Source: Octopus vulgaris (lineage: Eukaryota). From it: a DNA stretch of 64,000 bases. Every line of letters begins with the position of its first letter. Position 1 is the first letter of the stretch. The stretch spans positions 88,846,001 to 88,910,000 of the forward strand of contig OX597817.1 of assembly GCA_951406725.2 (NCBI GenBank), written 5' to 3'. Below the pieces are notes generated by a model. The model was not told the origin of the DNA. It saw only the letters and a list, made by a program, of their open reading frames with translations, and ran no database searches. This document shows positions 2,774 through 59,984 of the stretch, piece by piece. Both the position numbers and the translations under genes were made by a program.

Positions 2774-2924
2774 TACATATATACATACATACATACATAC
2801 ATACATACATACATACATACATACATACATGTGTATTGGTACAGGACGTCACGAACGGCGCAAATAACATGAAATACGTAAACAACGATAAAAATATGGA
2901 AAACAGGACAAGTAAACACGGAGA

Positions 2925-2992
2925 AAGGACCCTTCATCAGTTGTCGTCTGTCTATCTACTCCTCATTTCGAGCATTCAACGACAATATGAGG
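2925..2992 (-). ncRNA. Putative pseudoknotted/permuted hammerhead ribozyme (copy 1)
   Basis: Minus strand: cctcAT-A-ttgtcgt-tgaatgctc-GAA-Atgagg-linker-acgacaa-CTGATGA-agggtcctt; stem III cctcat/atgagg, stem I ttgtcgt/acgacaa. Confidence 0.6.
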
Positions 2993-3531
2993 CTTCAAAG
3001 GCAGTTACTCCCATAAATTCTAGGATTTATGGAGGGTCAAAGTTGGGAACAAAAACATGACTGTGGAGACATAAATGGAAACCGGACGAAAACAAACATG
3101 GAGGGTCGTTAGACCAGAACGAGAAAAAAATAGTGAACGCTAGGAGGAAGCTGAAAATAAAGAAATTTAGGAGAAACTTTTTTGAGAGAGAAAAGATGTG
3201 TGTGTGTGTGTGTGCGTGTGTGTGTGTGTATACATTCATATATGTTTATACACCGACATGCAAAGCACGTATTTATATGCGTGTGTGTTGGGGTGTGCAT
3301 GGTTGTCTGCGTACAATCGCGCGTACGTCTGCATGTGTGTATGTGTGTGTGTGTATGTATGTGTGGGTGTGCGTGCGTGTTTGTGCCTACTGCACGCACG
3401 TATCGTTACATTGTGTGCGGTATAAAAAAGGGCGTGCTCAATACATACAATGTTATGTTTGAAAAGTGTAGAATTGTGTAGATTAGTATACATACAAGTA
3501 CTAATGCGTAAATACATGCATAAACTATATA

Positions 3532-21226: not shown

Positions 21227-21514
21227 GGATCTTTTCCTTTTGATGGACGGAATTTCTAGTTAACTAAACAATTTGAAACTTCGTATACTGGTAGAATGTG
21301 TCAAAAGAAAACATTATTTTCACTTGGCTTTTTTGAGAAAATTGTAATTTGTAAGTTTAACGTAGTTTAATTCTTCGAATTTTAACCAATGCCAGCATTT
21401 GAGCTCAAATCATTTTCTGCGTTATCGATATTGATAAACAAACGGAGACGCACGCCGCATACACACACACACACACACACACACATATATTCAGATACAT
21501 ACACACGCACACTT

Positions 21515-21579
<65 letters not shown>

Positions 21580-22242
21580 CTCTCTCTCTTACTCTCTCTC
21601 TCTCTCTCTCTTTCAAACACATGCATATACATTTGCACAAGCACATAGTAATTAATATATAAGCGTACACGCACATACAAACGGAGATATGCATACACAC
21701 ACAAGCATATATATACACGTTCGTGAGTTCGCACTGGTGTCGATAGAATCGACTTAATACTTTTGTATCTCATGCTTTGTCCCCTCTGTGTTTTGTCCCT
21801 TGCAAAAAAGGTAAATAAACCAGAAGGGGGGGGGGGGGCAATGTTTAATCGTTTCGGGGTCGATAAATTAAGTACCAATTACGCACTGGTGTCGAGGATC
21901 TTTTTCCCAATTTATATCACAGCCTCCGACAAGCTGGGGCATCCTTTTATGAAAAAATATTTCGCAAATTTTTACAATACGACCCACACTCCACGCGCAC
22001 CCTCTAGACCGATTTAGGCATATTATTGTTTTGTTTTTGTTGTTTTTGGCCCTTCAAAACCACGAGAGAAGCCTTTTCGGTAAAAAAAAATAAAGAAAAT
22101 ATTAAAAAAATATCGTTAATATTTTTATTGGGCGACGATATTCATCGATTTAAGAGATATGGCTGTTATTTCTAGCACATGCATCCTCCTTTGTTTATCA
22201 ATATCGATGAGCGAGACAGACAGAAGAGAGAAGGATGAATAA

Positions 22243-22274
<32 letters not shown>

Positions 22275-22626
22275 ATGGTTACGTTGCAACAGGATGTTGT
22301 CTGAGTTTTTAGACGCAGCAAATGATTTGAGCTTAAATGCTGGCATTTCATTGGTTAAAATTCGAAGTATACGAAGTTTCAAATTGTTTAGTTAACTAGA
22401 AATTCCGTCCATCAAAAGGAAAAGATCCTATATGGATCTTTGAGCTCAAATGCTGGCATTTCATTGGTTAAAATTCGAAGAATTAAACTACGTTAAACTT
22501 ACAAATTACAATTTTCTCAAAAAAGCCAAGTGAAAATAATGTTTTCTTTTGACACATTCTACCAGTATACGAAGTTTCAAATTGTTTAGTTAACTAGAAA
22601 TTCCGTCCATCAAAAGGAAAAGATCC
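21227..22626. mobile_element. Non-autonomous Merlin-like DNA transposon inserted in a SINE
   Basis: ~185-bp TIRs starting GGATC; exact 8-bp TSD GAAAATCG (21219-21226, 22627-22634); SINE halves flank it; extra deleted TIR copy at 22320-22427. Confidence 0.75.
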
Positions 22627-23730: not shown

Positions 23731-23770
<40 letters not shown>

Positions 23771-23771
<1 letters not shown>

Positions 23772-23997
23772 TTTATTTTAAGCAGCAGAAAATTCAACAA
23801 AATCTGTTACTCTGAGTTTCTCGTTGCCGTTCATCAGACAGTTTTTGCTAGCAAAAACTGTCTGATGAACGGCAACGAGAAACTCAGAGTAACAGATTTT
23901 GTTGAATTTTCTGCTGCTTAAAATAAAGCATATTACTCTACCACTGGTATTTGAGTACTCTTTTTTCCACCTTGTTTCACATTTATGTGTTTACTCC

Positions 23998-24000
<3 letters not shown>
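23771..24000 (+). mobile_element. Fold-back mini-Penelope element with minimal type I HHR in both arms (23858-23895 +, 23804-23841 -)
   Basis: ctgt-CTGATGA-acggcaacga-GAAAC-tcaga-GTA-acag; perfect ~80-bp arms centred at 23849/50; (TA)n flanks. Confidence 0.85.
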
Positions 24001-24038
<38 letters not shown>

Positions 24039-24402
24039 GCAAACAAGATACTTCTTCACACACTCACAGAACACTCACACATACTATATAAAACACCACA
24101 CACATACCTACACAAACATACATATATAGAAATAGTCATATAAAAATACACAAAAAAAATATCTCCACACACTCGCGCGCGCGGAGAGCAAGGTTGTGTT
24201 CCAGCATGGCCAGAATTGAGTGGCAAAACCAAAGGAAAAACAAAAGTTCCTCACGCGTACAGATATAGAATGCAAACCACACTTGCACCCACACACACAC
24301 ACACCAACACACAGAGATACAGATACACAACAGAAACCATCTATTCACATTCACAGATGCACATGCACACACTTTATACGTACCGATGTACAACACAAAC
24401 CT

Positions 24403-24453
<51 letters not shown>

Positions 24454-24605
24454 ACACACACACAGACATAGATTAAATGCACATAAAGAACATGCTTACA
24501 TATATATAAACACTAACAACAACGACTCGCACAAACACACATACGTTGTTAAGCAAACGCTTATACACACAACACAGACTGCTTCACAATAACACTATGT
24601 ATAAT

Positions 24606-24654
<49 letters not shown>

Positions 24655-25231
24655 CGTATGTGTGTGTGTGTGTGTATAAGCGTTTGCTTAACAACGTCTG
24701 TGTGTTTGTGCGAGTCGTGTGTGTATATATATATATGTATATATATATACACACACACATATATATACATACACACATATACATATATGCATGTCTGTGT
24801 CAATGTTTGTGTGTGTGTGTGTGTGTGTACGCTGCTGTGTATATTTATATGTGTAAGAGTTATCATTATTGTTTAGTTTCCGGTCTGATTCGGAAGCTCT
24901 ACGATCAAAGGCTTTCCAATTGTGACCATCCATTTTTTTTTATTAGTAAGGAATCCATGACCACATTATCGAAAATATCCTCCGTTTCTAAGACGAGGGA
25001 GATTGGCTGTTATTTTTAGCATGCTGTGCGTCCACTTGGAAGCAACCATACATGTGTGCTATTCGTGAATGTGAGTGTATATATATGTATATGTGTGTGT
25101 ATGCGAACACATATATGCACATACATATATACATACATATACATATATATATATATACCACATGCACACACGCTCAGATATAGATGCACATTTATATATA
25201 TACATACATACATACATATACATATATATGT

Positions 25232-25280
<49 letters not shown>

Positions 25281-25282
<2 letters not shown>

Positions 25283-25509
25283 GGAGTAAACACATAAATG
25301 TGAAACAAGGTGGAAAAAAGAGTACTCAAATACCAGTGGTAGAGTAATATGCTTTATTTTAAGCAGCAGAAAATTCAACAAAATCTGTTACTCCGAGTTT
25401 CTCGTTGCCGTTCATCAGACAGTTTTTGCTAGAAAAAACTGTCTGATGAACGGCAACGAGAAACTCGGAGTAACAGATTTTGTTGAATTTTCTGCTGCTT
25501 AAAATAAAG
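25281..25509 (-). mobile_element. Second, inverted copy of the 23771-24000 HHR fold-back element
   Basis: Near-identical reverse complement; HHRs at 25385-25422 (-) and 25439-25476 (+), stem III actcggagt; (TA)n flanks. Confidence 0.85.
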
Positions 25510-25927
25510 TATATATATATATATGCACGCATTCATACGCACATATACGTACAGACACACATATGTATACACACACATACATCCAGACACACATACACAC
25601 GCACTATATGTCTACTGTTCTACCGTGCTAGAATCCTGACGTGAAATTCTGTCAGGCTGACAACGGGTTTGTCACACCCTCTTAAAGGGCTGTACTTACT
25701 ACAACAAGAATCTGGCATCTGTATAATTACTCTGCATCCCCGTCCACTACTCTTTCTATTTCTCCCTCCCCTAGTTCTTTTTTAGTTTAATAGTAATCTC
25801 CTCCTTCTCCTCTTTTTTCTCATCCTCCTCTTTCTCATTTTGCTTCTCTTTGCTGTTTGTAAGCAGAGGAGAAGGGGAAAATAAGCCGTTAAATGGTGAT
25901 TGTGTGTGTGAGTGGAAAACAGAGTGA

Positions 25928-28989: not shown

Positions 28990-29838
28990 TATGAAAAAAG
29001 GTTTGAAAATGCAATTTAAACGATGTTTATTTACTTAACCGGTTTCACTCTTTGTTAAAAAGATTGTCAAAAGTAACATTGAATATTATGGGTTCAAAAA
29101 AGTTTTTTACATAATTGTCACATTGAATATTATGAATTCAAAAATGTTTTTTATACATAATTGTCACATTACATGTATAAATATAGTATAAAAAAGTTCA
29201 ATAGTGTGATGAGAATATTTGGAAAAATTGGCAGAAAAGAATAAAACAAATATATTATTGGAAATTTGGTTGCGTTAATTATTGGTTGTCGCAAATTGTC
29301 ACATTACATGTATATATATACAGTCTTTGGTAGAAATGACATGTTAAAGACATAAGGAAGTGTAATAGTTTGGTGAGAAAGCTTGTAATATTGACAGAGA
29401 AAATTAAAATGGATATTTTAGACATCTCAGAATATTTTGAATCGAAGGCGAGAATTTGTTTTTACTGACCTGTTTGTTTTAGCAGAAAAGTTGAATTGAG
29501 AGAAAAAAAAGATATGTACCCAATTTGGTTTATACTTCCCCTTCAAGCATCAGTGACTTTGGGGTTATTGGGAGGTGAGTATGCGGGTGTGAATAGATGT
29601 GTCCGTGTGCCTGCTGGTCAGACAGCGTCTGTTTGTCACACACATATATACACACACACACACAACAACAATACACACACACACATAGTATACACACACA
29701 CACCACATACACACAACACACACACACACAGAACACACACACACACAACGCACCCACATATATAATATATACACACAGCACACAAATATAACATGTATTT
29801 ATATATAATATACACACATATATAAAACATACACACAC

Positions 29839-29875
<37 letters not shown>

Positions 29876-30569
29876 CACACGCACACATATATACATAATA
29901 TAAATATCACACAAATACACCTAGCATATATATACACATACAATACACATACACAGCATGTATATAATACACATACACAATATATGCATGCAATATACAT
30001 ACGCAATACATACATATAATATATATATATATAGACAATGCATATACATATATACATATATACATATAAATAGTGTTTACATACACATACATAGATATAC
30101 CACATATACACACAATATACATACATACAATGCATACACATACACGTACGCATACATATAAAATATATAGACACACACACACATAACATACATACACAAT
30201 GCATACATATATATACACGCAACGTATATACATGTATTCATGTATATATACACACTTACAATATACATATATACAATGCACACATACACACATATATACA
30301 CTTAATTGTACACATACATATACAATACACATACATACAATATACATATACACAATGCGCATGCAAATAATGCACATGTTTATACACCCATATACATGAA
30401 AATATATATACACACACACACATACACACACACATATATATATATACACATATATATATATATATACACATATACATACATACATACATGCACATACATA
30501 TATTTTTTCACACACATACACACACATATATATATAAAATTCACACACACACCCACACACACAAAATAC

Positions 30570-30609
<40 letters not shown>

Positions 30610-31392
30610 ATATGCATGGTATGTGTGTATATGTGAGTACATTGTTTGTGTGTGTGTGCGGTATGTAGAGATATATTTGAGTGTGTACACTATAGGTTTG
30701 TATTTTGTGTGTGTGGGTGTGTGTGTGAATTTTATATATATATGTGTGTGTATGTGTGTGAAAAAATATATGTATGTGCATGTATGTATGTATGTATATG
30801 TGTATATATATATATATGTGTATATATATATATGTGTGTGTGTATGTGTGTGTGTGTATATATATTTTCATGTATATGGGTGTATAAACATGTGCATTAT
30901 TTGCATGCGCATTGTGTATATGTATATTGTATGTATGTGTATTGTATATGTATGTGTACAATTAAGTGTATATATGTGTGTATGTGTGCATTGTATATAT
31001 GTATATTGTAAGTGTGCTATATATACATGAATACATGTATATACGTTGCGTGTATATATATGTATGCATTGTGTATGTATGTTATGTGTGTGTGTGTCTA
31101 TATATTTTATATGTATGCGTACGTGTATGTGTATGCATTGTATGTATGTATATTGTGTGTATATGTGGTATATCTATGTATGTGTATGTAAACACTATTT
31201 ATATGTATATATGTATATATGTATATGCATTGTCTATATATATATATATTATATGTATGTATTGCGTATGTATATTGCATGCATATATTGTGTATGTGTA
31301 TTATATACATGCTGTGTATGTGTATTGTATGTGTATATATATGCTAGGTGTATTTGTGTGATATTTATATTATGTATATATGTGTGCGTGTG

Positions 31393-31433
<41 letters not shown>

Positions 31434-32320
31434 GTGTGTGTATGTTTTATATATGTGTGTATATTATATATAAATACATGTTATATTTGTGTGCTGTGTG
31501 TATATATTATATATGTGGGTGCGTTGTGTGTGTGTGTGTTCTGTGTGTGTGTGTGTTGTGTGTATGTGGTGTGTGTGTGTATACTATGTGTGTGTGTGTA
31601 TTGTTGTTGAGTGTGTGTGTGTATATATGTGTGTGACAAACAGACGCTGTCTGACCAGCAGGCACACGGACACATCTATTCACACCCGCATACTCACCTC
31701 CCAATAACCCCAAAGTCACTGATGCTTGAAGGGGAAGTATAAACCAAATTGGGTACATATCTTTTTTTTCTCTCAATTCAACTTTTCTGCTAAAACAAAC
31801 AGGTCAGTAAAAAACAAATTCTCGCCTTCGATTCAAAATATTCTGAGATGTCTAAAATATCCATTTTAATTTTCTCTGTCAATATTACAAGCTTTCTCAC
31901 CAAACTATTACACTTCCTTATGTCTTTAACATGTCATTTCTACCAAAGACTGTATATATATACATGTAATGTGACAATTTGCGACAACCAATAATTAACG
32001 CAACCAAATTTCCAATAATATATTTGTTTTATTCTTTTCTGCCAATTTTTCCAAATATTCTCATCACACTATTGAACTTTTTTATACTATATTTATACAT
32101 GTAATGTGACAATTATGTATAAAAAAACATTTTTGAATTCATAATATTCAATGTGACAATTATGTAAAAAACTTTTTTTGAACCCATAATATTCAATGTT
32201 ACTTTTGACAATCTTTTTAACAAAGAGTGAAACCGGTTAAGTAAATAAACATCGTTTAAATTGCATTTTCAAACCTTTTTTCATATATAATCCCACTCGT
32301 GCGATACCCCACAACTCAAC

Positions 32321-32415: not shown

Positions 32416-34574
32416 TTAATAAGGGTGAGAGAATTAGATACTAATTTAATAGTATATTTATTACACCAAGTGGCCTAGTGCTTCGAGAAACCTGGATTAT
32501 TATAATATTTTATAACATATTATAATATTTTTACAAAATAAATATAAGAGAGTGGTCACTATATTGCTCACTCTAGCACCAGTTAATCCAAAAGGTTTCA
32601 ACCACGAAAATACATGCTTATCATGAAAGTCAGTACGATTGTTAGCTCACACGGACAGGGCAAATAAAAAATAACAAAAATACAGATTATTTTGGGACCG
32701 TGTGATTGAGTGGATTTCATCCAGATAGTCTTGGCTGACGAGCTACAAATGGATTTTTATTGTAAGTAAAATTACATTTAATTCATTAATAGCGAAACAA
32801 TTGTCCCAAAATAATCTGTATTTTTGTTATTTTTTATTTGCCCTGTCCGTGTGAGCTAACAATCGTACTGACTTTCATGATAAGCATGTATTTTCGTGGT
32901 TGAAACCTTTTGGATTAACTGGTGCTAGAGTGAGCAATATAGTGACCACTCTCTTATATTTATTTTGTAAAAATATTATAATATGTTATAAAATATTATA
33001 ATAATCCAGGTTTCTCGAAGCACTAGGCCACTTGGTGTGGAATAAATATACTATTAAATTAGTATCTAATTCTCTCACCCTTATTAATTAATTATAATTA
33101 TGCTGCATTTATTTCTAAATGCTGTATTTGTTTTCCGTGAAAGTTTGGCGCGCTGTTGGTTGGGGCATTTGAATTATAACGTCGGATGTAATCAATTGAA
33201 CCACACGCGTATTTATCGTTATGGTAAAATCTGGCGTGTGATTGAGTGGATTTCATCCAGATAGTCTTGGCTGACGAGCTACAAATGGATTTTTATTGTA
33301 AGTAAAATTACATTTAATTCATTAATAGCGAAACAATTGTCCCAAAATAATCTGTATTTTTGTTATTTTTTATTTGCCCTGTCCGTGTGAGCTAACAATC
33401 GTACTGACTTTCATGATAAGCATGTATTTTCGTGGTTGAAACCTTTTGGATTAACTGGTGCTAGAGTGAGCAATATAGTGACCACTCTCTTATATTTATT
33501 TTGTAAAAATATTATAATATGTTATAAAATATTATAATAATCCAGGTTTCTCGAAGCACTAGGCCACTTGGTGTGGAATAAATATACTATTAAATTAGTA
33601 TCTAATTCTCTCACCCTTATTAATTAATTATAATTATGCTGCATTTATTTCTAAATGCTGTATTTGTTTTCCGTGAAAGTTTGGCGCGCTGTTGGTTGGG
33701 GCATTTGAATTATAACGTCGGATGTAATCAATTGAACCACACGCGTATTTATCGTTATGGTAAAATCTGGCGTGTGATTGAGTGGATTTCATCCAGATAG
33801 TCTTGGCTGACGAGCTACAAATGGATTTTTATTGTAAGTAAAATTACATTTAATTCATTAATAGCGAAACAATTGTCCCAAAATAATCTGTATTTTTGTT
33901 ATTTTTTATTTGCCCTGTCCGTGTGAGCTAACAATCGTACTGACTTTCATGATAAGCATGTATTTTCGTGGTTGAAACCTTTTGGATTAACTGGTGCTAG
34001 AGTGAGCAATATAGTGACCACTCTCTTATATTTATTTTGTAAAAATATTATAATATGTTATAAAATATTATAATAATCCAGGTTTCTCGAAGCACTAGGC
34101 CACTTGGTGTGGAATAAATATACTATTAAATTAGTATCTAATTCTCTCACCCTTATTAATTAATTATAATTATGCTGCATTTATTTCTAAATGCTGTATT
34201 TGTTTTCCGTGAAAGTTTGGCGCGCTGTTGGTTGGGGCATTTGAATTATAACGTCGGATGTAATCAATTGAACCACACGCGTATTTATCGTTATGGTAAA
34301 ATCTGGCGTGTGATTGAGTGGATTTCATCCAGATAGTCTTGGCTGACGAGCTACAAATGGATTTTTATTGTAAGTAAAATTACATTTAATTCATTAATAG
34401 CGAAACAATTGTCCCAAAATAATCTGTATTTTTGTTATTTTTTATTTGCCCTGTCCGTGTGAGCTAACAATCGTACTGACTTTCATGATAAGCATGTATT
34501 TTCGTGGTTGAAACCTTTTGGATTAACTGGTGCTAGAGTGAGCAATATAGTGACCACTCTCTTATATTTATTTT
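32407..34574 (+). mobile_element. Retrozyme-like array: ~3.5 tandem 536-bp units preceded by an inverted partial unit
   Basis: Unit starts at 32701, 33237, 33773, 34309; 32407-32698 is the reverse complement of 32803-33097; (TA)n flanks; one HHR per unit. Confidence 0.9.
32731..32809 (+). ncRNA. Intact type I hammerhead ribozyme (repeated at 33267-33345, 33803-33881, 34339-34417)
   Basis: ttgg-CTGACGA-gcta[long hairpin]tagc-GAAAC-aatt-GTC-ccaa; predicted cleavage after 32805. Confidence 0.9.
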
Positions 34575-35233
34575 ATATATATATATATATATACATATAT
34601 AAAGATCTGTCTCTTTTATTCTTAACAGTATTTCAATTCTGAAATATTCTTGATACTTGACATTATCACTCTTCTCATTCGGAGTCGATCTCAGTTGCCA
34701 CCAGGTGATTTCTTTGTAGTTACTCTGCATCTAAACAGAAATTCAATTAATCAAGAATATATCTTGTATGGTATTTAAAATGTCTTAATTATTATTGATC
34801 GCTCTGAGCTATGTGTAACTTGGAGTAAAGGTTTGTGAAGTTCTTCACTTTCATTAAAATTCTCTCTCTCACTTTCTCGTTCTCTCTATGTACGTTCATA
34901 GATACGAAAGTGTGTGTGTGTATGTGTGTGCGTGCGTGTGCGTGTATAACCACTTCTAGCCACCTTCGATTAACATTCCCAGGACCATATTTTTTAGTAA
35001 GTCATAGTTTTAGTGGTTAACCAAACTGGCCACTCATAGTGCATACGTATTACATTACGTGGATTTAGTCTTTCTCATTTGCAAAATGAACCCCACTTAA
35101 TTTTGCTCAGATTGCTTTCAATTTTGGTGTATCGATGTAAGTCTGAATTTTGGTTACGATGAACCAATTATTTTATTTCGTAAATTAAAGAATCTGATGT
35201 TATATCAAAGTTGGGAAATTTGGGTAATTTTAG

Positions 35234-59085: not shown

Positions 59086-59179
<94 letters not shown>

Positions 59180-59290
59180 TACAGGACACCACAAATAAAC
59201 GTAGAACACAACGAGAAACGAAAACATAAAAACAAACAAGGAAACGGACTTTTTTTAACAACGAAAAAACAGGGTACAAGACAACAATAC

Positions 59291-59362
59291 AAGGAATATT
59301 CCCCTTCATCAGCTGCCCTTGGTTCGATTCAATGCGTGTTTCGAAGATAAGGGCAGAACACG
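59291..59362 (-). ncRNA. Putative pseudoknotted/permuted hammerhead ribozyme (copy 2)
   Basis: Minus strand: cgtGT-T-ctgccctt-atcttc-GAA-Acacg-linker-aagggcag-CTGATGA-aggggaatattcctt. Confidence 0.6.
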
Positions 59363-59984
59363 ATTCGGCCGAAGCAATCCTTCCTGAAAAATGAATTAAA
59401 TGAAATTCTTTTGCAGAGGGGTAAAAAAAGGAAAGAAAAAAAGTGACAAAAACAGGACGTAAAAGCAATACAAATAAAAATACAGGCTTAAAAGAGCCCT
59501 CAATGTTGGGTTTTCTTTATGTGTACGGTGCGTTGTGTTCTTGAGCAAAGCACTTCATTTCATACTGCTCCAGTTCACTTGCACCTGTACAGTTAACGCC
59601 AGTTTGATGGACTGAGTGAGCGACTGTACAGCACAGACATTTGATAAGCATAAACAAGTCATCTGTACAAGTTGTTCATCGATAAGCTGCAGCGACCTTA
59701 TCTGTCATCATCGACTGAAGAGTTCATGCATGTATGTATGCGTGCATGCGTGCATGTATGTATGCATGCATGTATGTATGTATGTATGTATGTATGTATG
59801 TATGTATGTATGTATGTATGTATGTATGTATGTGTGTGTGAGTATGTGCACGTGTACATATGTATGTGTGTGTGTATATGTGCACGTGTACATATGTATG
59901 TATGTATGTAGGTAGGTACGTACTTATGCAAGCATGCATGCATGCATGTAAATATGTATGTATGTGTGTGTACGTACGTATGCA

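Follow-up and report, generated by a model that had tools for sequence, protein, structure and literature searches.

Introduction

The described systems closest to the RNA fold analysed here are the hammerhead ribozymes of Penelope-like elements and the permuted hammerheads. In known hammerhead alignments the CUGAnGA core is separated from the adjacent stems by at most 1-2 nt, and the junction between A9 and G10.1 was assumed to be unsplittable (Eckert 2023, PMC10085705). Of the permuted forms covered in that paper, type CSG was represented by no more than two metagenome sequences. At just this 9/10.1 junction Penelope hammerheads have an additional base, and circularisation of the cleaved RNA has been proposed for them (Cervera 2014, PMC4209133). 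For the reverse transcriptase (RT), internal initiation has been described (Frangieh 2024). Among the traits listed for Penelope-like elements are 5' truncation as well as inverted and tandem arrangements; in the same work Naiads were reported to be without a canonical hammerhead, some of them being flagged 'HHR_core' or 'HHR_half_core' (Craig 2021, PMC8557442).

Here we analysed 64,000 nt of the Octopus vulgaris genome (contig OX597817.1, positions 88,846,001 to 88,910,000), in the following called the window. Twice, at 59383-59306 and again at 3010-2934, its minus strand carries the UH, GAAA and CUGAUGA core of a hammerhead; the cut site comes first, GAAA follows and CUGAUGA stands last. With a probability of roughly 0.68 we consider these motifs to be hammerhead cores whose stems come in crossed order and whose chain is open between A9 and G10.1, with predicted self-cleavage after the GUU ending at 59357.

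Wiring of the two window copies

On the minus strand the elements of both copies follow each other as IIa–P4a–IIIb–UH–Ib–IIb–GAAA–IIIa–P4b–Ia–CUGAUGA. In the first copy IIa (GAAGG, 59379..59383), assigned by descriptor and family covariation, supplies G10.1 and pairs with IIb. It is followed by P4a (UUCGG, 59369..59373), the 5' strand of a fourth helix taken from the table of 14 consensuses, and by IIIb together with U16.1 and H17 (59357..59362, ending in GUU with H17 at 59357). The predicted cut lies after H17, between 59357 and 59356. Behind it stand Ib (CUGCCCUU, 59349..59356; like IIIb assigned by descriptor and covariation) and the block 59335..59347 with IIb (UCUUC, 59347-59343), GAAA (59342-59339) and IIIa (CACG, 59338-59335). 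P4b (UCGAA, 59323..59327), again from the consensus table, precedes the last block (59306..59320), in which Ia (AAGGGCAG, 59320-59313) leads into the CUGAUGA core (59312-59306), the last element of the fold. Read from the sequence, stem III is cgtgt 59362-59358 / acacg 59339-59335 and stem I is ctgccctt 59356-59349 / aagggcag 59320-59313. For the second copy (2934..3010, minus strand) the revised descriptor places IIa at 3010-3006, P4a at 3004-2999, IIIb and U at 2991-2987, H17 at 2986 (AUA), Ib at 2985-2979, IIb at 2974-2970, GAAA at 2969-2966, IIIa at 2965-2962, P4b at 2953-2948, Ia at 2947-2941 and CUGAUGA at 2940-2934.

An earlier sequence-only reading of this locus had listed stems I and III, the GUU, GAAA, a 14-nt linker and CUGAUGA, all of which are present at the minus-strand places it gave. 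Its coordinates were incomplete in that the stem II partner lies outside them, at 59383-59379 (3010-3006 in the other copy), and its drawing lacked the fourth helix, which is present. The descriptor based on that reading returned exactly the two window copies versus one place in 300 dinucleotide-shuffled windows. The revised descriptor returned the same two copies, with 0 places in 1000 shuffles. Rfam gave no hammerhead match over either copy at E values up to 10. Nested folding programs favour other folds (z -0.67), one of which hides GAAA while another pairs Ia and CUG with downstream sequence.

Past the core, an AGGGG...CCUU stretch (59290..59305, minus strand) lies outside the supported fold; it could fold into a hairpin by itself or act as an alternative, weak stem II. 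The ggaatattcc palindrome found there (59302-59293, minus strand), previously taken as a conserved companion of the motif, turned out to be specific to subfamily B, and related subfamilies have other sequence at this place. In most subfamilies the sequence past the core (59306-59270 on the minus strand of the window, and its homologues) can fold back on Ia and CUG, which is a candidate for an off-switch or for a vestige of an ancestral type I arrangement.

Host elements

Both motifs reside in non-coding Penelope-like elements. The first host belongs to subfamily B (59177..59484, minus strand) and is 5'-truncated; its 3' end gtcctgta(ttc) abuts (AT)n. At its 5' junction lies an inverted piece of the same element (59484..59526, plus strand), recognised by comparison with the upstream sequence of other copies and a hallmark of Penelope-like elements. 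The second host (2838..3198, minus strand) is a related, likewise 5'-truncated element of subfamily A. As already noted in the sequence-only reading, gtcctgta followed by a microsatellite is common to both hosts. For subfamily B the 2.8-Gb genome holds 3142 candidate copies, with 93-100% identity at 40 scored places, and for subfamily A 4477 candidate copies, with 84-100% identity at 40 scored places. The copy at 59177..59484 is a truncated insertion, likely inert as an element, whose core is intact.

The fetched copies fell into 13 usable non-coding subfamilies. They share the 3' end gtcctgtac at (AT)n, are 5'-truncated and carry the motif 130-190 nt from the 3' end of the element. Inverted 5' pieces were found in 9/30 B and 7/30 A copies, partial tandems in 4/30 B and 1/30 A copies. 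The hosts thus display 5' truncation, inverted 5' copies, partial tandems, a tail and (TA)n targeting, all of them Penelope-like traits. Subfamily B has a repeat unit of about 800 nt and E2 one of 898 nt; no coding frame was found in either unit, and a supposed EN C-terminus remnant in the units was not significant. The B unit (upstream part of loci L010 and L026) contains an intron-like segment with GTAAGT donor, TACTAAC branch site and CAG acceptor, a predicted feature resembling the 5' UTR intron of Penelope.

Elsewhere the window contains long near-perfect inverted repeats at 29140-32133, 23756-25524 and 21227-22626, whose arms reach about 1.4 kb, 281 nt and 165 nt. At 32463-34584 there is a 536-nt tandem repeat, whose first copy is inverted and whose units each contain CTGACGA. 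The palindromic elements at 23756-24036 and 25244-25524 have CTGATGA on both strands; no hammerhead stems were seen in them.

Covariation of the stems

A core pattern, CGAAA-N17-32-CTGATGAAGG, had 5,728 exact matches genome-wide versus 27 for the reversed control. A second pattern with other N7 bases had 7,376 matches versus 501 in the control, part of the 7,376 being an unrelated canonical type I hammerhead family. For a pairing table we used 14 consensuses, i.e. the 13 non-coding subfamilies and a Naiad-type end; subfamily G2, represented by a truncated copy only, was left out. CUGANGA, GAAA and UH are invariant in these and in coral-type consensuses, where CUGAUGA and GAAA served as search anchors and UH did not. 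All 14 consensuses have U16.1-A15.1, G10.1-C11.1 and an H17 that is A, C or U. Stems I, II and III abut the core, together with the A15.1-U16.1 and the 10.1-11.1 pair, with support from covariation.

Watson-Crick pairing amounted to 70/70 for stem II with the upstream partner, 68/70 for stem III and 70/70 for stem I, compared with means of 3.1-3.5 of 5 pairs for non-cognate partners. A hand count over the 14-consensus table on the subfamily tree gave at least 16 independent double changes. Upstream stem II has double changes at three positions and occurs as GAAGG/CCUUC, GAACG/CGUUC, GAGCA/UGCUC and GACAC/GUGUC. The sequence-only reading had formed stem II from the AGGG following CUGAUGA; this pairing reaches 25/70 Watson-Crick pairs and no compensatory change versus the 70/70 upstream. 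Judged from these comparisons, the stem II partner lies upstream of the cut site in both window copies and the AGGG was a mis-assignment. The wiring corresponds to that of the SGC/CSG circle, with the opening placed between A9 and G10.1.

Our first working model, a type-SGC match, had likewise used the downstream GGG and was abandoned, as its stems I and III covaried and its stem II did not. The true partner upstream was recognised through inspection of Naiad 3' ends. An early I-II helix, in which the linker paired with the 3' flank, was replaced by P4. An upstream partner arises by chance in 6209/20000 shuffles of the upstream stretch for the copy at 59383-59306 and in 585/20000 for the other copy. 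In the window copy taken by itself it is therefore weak evidence, and the case rests on the covariation of the family.

We also scored a sequence-only alignment of 41 copies from the 13 subfamilies, obtained from 49 rows by removing 4 Naiad-type rows and 4 copies that were 5'-truncated or deleted. In it 92.4% of 609 cells of stems I–III pair and 11/15 pairs have double (compensatory) changes, compared with 29-45% pairing and 2-4 double-change pairs for slid-partner controls. G1 and G3 were kept, and their IIa, 1-2 columns off, was scored as failure. With short flanks the cut-site block of A and D was two columns off; a longer 5' flank brought it into register. The number of double-change pairs did not exceed that of a column shuffle (83/500), and on the other measures of the covariation tool related sequences can beat this shuffle.

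The fourth helix P4 connects the 3' side of IIa with the 5' side of Ia in 14/14 consensuses and has 4-10 bp. Its duplex energy is -8.1 kcal/mol for cognate versus -4.5 for non-cognate partners; its register varies between lineages, and the cognate partner ranked first in 4/14. The order of elements, the invariant core and the covariation of stems I to III are thus established, and the covariation of P4 is looser.

Neither of the two outcomes named as refuting the earlier reading occurred: family consensuses retain the pairings, and shuffled sequence does not yield the motif at a similar rate. Its view that the helices had been replaced completely went too far: the A and B consensuses differ in stem III at 3/4 variable pairs and in stem I at 2 of its first 5. 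That reading had also proposed a selected, pseudoknotted hammerhead-type RNA near the 3' ends of related retroelements. This is supported, except that selection does not extend to inserted copies. Among subfamily C copies that had been chosen solely by their upstream sequence, decay at non-CpG sites was 5.9% in the core, 6.6% in the stems and 6.5% in the flanks. Since all three decayed alike, selection acted on source lineages and not on inserted copies. An intactness test that used the downstream-stem-II model was passed by 22/30 B, 8/30 A and 3/21 C copies.

Folding within one molecule or between two

In the fold as we picture it, P4 and stem III would form a hairpin whose loop bears the cut site, Ib, IIb and GAA. 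IIa, located 5' of the hairpin, would pair with the loop to give stem II. Ia-CUGAUGA, located 3' of it, would pair with the loop to give stem I, such that CUGAUGA is delivered last. P4 would connect stems I and II at their far ends, like the 'I' helix of type-SGC hammerheads. In subfamilies A, C, D, G and H the internal loop between stem III and P4 has purine-rich GA/GA strands adjoining stem III, possibly a kink that allows P4 to fold back. A CGAAR directly 5' of the cut-site block in subfamilies A, C and D may be the vestige of a second GAAA.

The active form could also be a dimer or tandem swap, in which IIa and Ia-CUGAUGA, with P4 holding them together, bind the loop of a second copy, and cutting needs two units. 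Dimer action has been described for metazoan Penelope hammerheads (Cervera 2014, PMC4209133), and tandems do occur here (loci L149, L007 and L026). In some published Naiad consensuses, assessed by eye, P4 runs into stem III almost without interruption, through linkers of 0-3 nt that a rough estimate of 2.8 A per pair finds too short for fold-back in one molecule. By the same estimate a monomer is feasible in the window subfamilies, whose III-P4 linkers have 4-9 nt and whose P4 has 5-10 bp; moreover, most copies are solitary. We regard the swap as rather unlikely in general and as a real alternative for Naiads with near-continuous P4 and stem III; it is compatible with a crossed-order self-cleaving fold.

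Relation to Naiads and mobilisation

The 3' ends of the published Naiad_Ovul and Naiad_Obim consensuses (Craig 2021, PMC8557442) fit the split fold, and a pattern derived from them had 237 exact places in the genome and 0 in the control. The putative assignment of coding carriers to Naiads, a clade marked by an N-terminal GIY-YIG ahead of the RT, is based on the match to these consensuses. At L385 and L256 of this genome, RT C-terminal remnants precede the motif in the same orientation by 0.85-1.3 kb. With L276 and 3/18 divergent RT hits included, such same-strand remnants are found 0.3-1.4 kb upstream of the motif. Among the matches listed, six RT hits are located 0.8-1.9 kb upstream of Naiad-pattern motifs. 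The fetched Naiad-type copies are 5'-truncated and retain RT C-terminal remnants only.

With a pattern from the Acropora consensus we pulled 120 metagenome loci. Of the coral-type copies 36/99 are complete and 63/99 are without the upstream part. The complete ones fall into two subfamilies and show a C-G/U-A change in stem I. They have a 10-bp P4 and a 6-bp stem II, all 6 Watson-Crick pairs being made with the upstream partner and none with a downstream one. In the coral-type locus L276 a Naiad-type RT end precedes the motif by 341 nt. In the supplement of the Naiad study (PMC8557442) the Beroe entry also shows the split order by eye, as do three entries for Acropora, one each in parts 9 and 19 and two in part 12, the last four by file order in the cnidarian and arthropod range. 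A type CSG order with I-II helix is likewise seen by eye in three Nippostrongylus entries, two in the Pristionchus range and two or three further entries in the nematode range. Look-ups in the supplement, which miss motifs split over line ends, gave no such motif for many other entries. The permuted order likely explains why Naiads were reported as hammerhead-less.

The Octopus Naiad consensus shares the fold with the window elements and is identical to subfamily B in stem I over 6 bp; (TA)n targeting, 5' truncation and inverted and tandem arrangements are common to both (Craig 2021, PMC8557442). Unlike Naiad, the window elements are non-coding, have another 3' terminus and contain the intron-like segment. 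Outside the core the Naiad end and the B copy are barely similar (z 3.5). Rough divergences, all from biased samples, were 2.8% for B, 5.7% for A, 7.9% for Naiad, whose sampled copies thus look older than B, and about 0.9% for a Neptune-type family. A Naiad-type element, whose 3' end has the same wiring, is the best source of the ribozyme, and the fold would have been inherited from it.

An autonomous partner, for which a search had been proposed in the sequence-only reading, was not found in direct association with subfamilies A and B. Across about 190 loci no A-H type 3' end was found joined to an RT or endonuclease, and the window elements share no terminus with Naiad-type ends, the ribozyme wiring being common to both. 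An RT fragment beside a B copy (L004) is the insertion target, and its Neptune-type family has a canonical hammerhead. EN fragments near L037, L103, L152 and L202 are antisense or of other families.

The Neptune-type family itself (L121:3752-7393, minus strand, and L122-L124) encodes an RT, a Zn-finger linker and GIY-YIG, is young and has at least 150 scored copies. Conceivably, though in our view improbably, it moves the non-coding window elements in place of Naiad, the Naiad-type ribozyme having only been inherited or captured. Its low divergence, its many long open frames and its insertion beside (AT)n speak for this, as does the state of the Naiad copies here, which are broken remnants; broken cephalopod Naiads are also reported in Craig 2021 (PMC8557442). 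Against it, the family has no sequence homology to the non-coding units and a different 3' terminus, its pLTR carrying a canonical minimal type I hammerhead with an UUGAAGA core. This genome contains at least three further canonical Penelope-type hammerhead families (L111, L118, L158, L173, L198), many of them nested within the (TA)n tails of one another.

Predicted cleavage and its traces

The crossed-order fold would be complete once CUGAUGA is transcribed, and the predicted cut after H17 would follow. Cleavage would trim tandem or read-through RNA, with units of roughly 600-900 nt, to unit-length templates. A Penelope-type RT/GIY-YIG protein would copy these in trans into (TA)n sites. Completion at CUGAUGA, cutting after H17 and release of a unit-length template that is possibly circularised are, taken together, a probable course of events. 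The fixed 3' end and the tail fit the internal RT initiation of Frangieh 2024.

If the RT uses cleaved RNA as its template, the 5' ends of new copies are expected directly behind the cut. Within 19 nt behind the predicted cut we found the 5' starts of 22/83 pattern-picked non-coding copies, where 7.7 were expected from the upstream rate (p 5e-6). The adjoining interval had 6/61 starts (Fisher p 0.018 versus 22/83), and after dropping starts at the pattern edge 17/78 remained versus 5.8 expected. No starts fell between +4 and +14, and another upstream interval reaches 21.6% versus the 26.5% behind the cut. Naiad-type copies show no excess (3/30), and for coral-type copies the position of the excess depends on the method. 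The pile-up of 5' ends, a pattern in genomic copies, may hint at cleavage in vivo; RT stalling in the structure is the alternative.

A hammerhead-derived fold that no longer cuts and is kept as a binding or initiation signal for the RT is doubtful. The motif does sit near the 3' end, where the RT engages, 61/83 copies run unbroken through the cut site, and metazoan Penelope hammerheads cleave poorly in vitro (Cervera 2014, PMC4209133). However, turnover of the stems has left every catalytic nucleotide and the exclusion of G at H17 intact, 5' ends accumulate behind the cut site, and uncut or circular templates are expected to give read-through copies.

Comparison with known hammerheads

That the motif is an ordinary type-SGC hammerhead, with stem II formed by an extra A and the GGG past CUGAUGA and with the upstream GAAGG as folding intermediate or switch, is very improbable: although AAGG follows the core in 13/13 non-coding subfamilies, giving G-C and G-U, although Penelope hammerheads usually carry a single additional nucleotide at 9/10.1 (Cervera 2014, PMC4209133), and although duplex energies in the window copy are alike (-2.8 upstream versus -2.7 downstream), the downstream pairing is no better than with non-cognate partners and impossible in coral-type copies (A.C or C.C at 10.1/11.1), and a downstream hairpin formed by the conserved AAGG itself can account for it.

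Counting against the split reading, no precedent for a break at 9/10.1 was found in the literature. The open-access literature gave no report of a split block C, nor of permuted hammerheads in Naiads, Penelope-like elements, Octopus or animal genomes. If the split reading is true, hammerhead wiring goes beyond the six-permutation scheme, and a core that tolerates a chain break at 9/10.1 offers design freedom for engineered ribozymes. Non-circular permutation would move from environmental RNAs into animal genomes. The notion that Naiads spread without a hammerhead, used to question a ribozyme role in Penelope-like elements, would be overturned, and this role would become testable with a self-contained 80-nt RNA. 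Because Rfam and standard descriptors miss the motif, ribozyme counts in invertebrates are likely underestimates. With odds slightly better than even, we further propose that the split-9/10.1 hammerhead is a seventh natural architecture, active and the standard ribozyme of Naiads across a range of animals that spans ctenophores, cnidarians, arthropods and cephalopods, its counterpart in nematodes being type CSG; non-circularly permuted forms would then number tens of thousands in animal genomes, rather than being rarities of viroid-like RNAs, and would cut retroelement RNA in vivo.

Animal (non-LTR) retrozymes (bioRxiv 10.64898/2026.07.22.740005; PMC7229834) are, like the window units, non-coding, tandem-prone, hammerhead-bearing derivatives of Penelope-like elements, and are defined by a type I hammerhead in each tandem unit. 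The window units differ from them in being longer, mostly solitary and of permuted form; since the form is permuted and tandems are confined to a minority of copies, they fall outside that definition.

The minimal type I hammerheads in the pLTRs of Penelope, Poseidon, Neptune and Hydra (Cervera 2014, PMC4209133) likewise lie near the 3' end, have G10.1-C11.1, tolerate insertion at 9/10.1 and form many covarying subfamilies per genome. They are unknotted in the order C-G-S with a palindromic stem III of 1-2 bp, whereas the window fold has a 5-bp stem III, crossed order and an upstream IIa. Canonical minimal type I hammerheads coexist with it in this genome.

Nearest in architecture are types SGC and CSG (Eckert 2023, PMC10085705), which have the same cyclic order, three mutually crossing stems and a full core, the same helix bridging stems I and II at their far ends and the same link of 2-6 nt between Ib and IIb. 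In types SGC, CSG and GCS, however, IIa directly follows CUGANGA as an intact block C. The window fold lies outside this block-C arrangement because its covarying IIa is upstream and the downstream partner fails. With the chain opened at A9/G10.1 it is thus outside the six types as described in the main text of that work, and its crossed order separates it from types I, II and III, which are unknotted three-way junctions. We regard it as a predicted ribozyme that would work like a hammerhead and that belongs neither to types I-III nor, strictly, to SGC, CSG or GCS.
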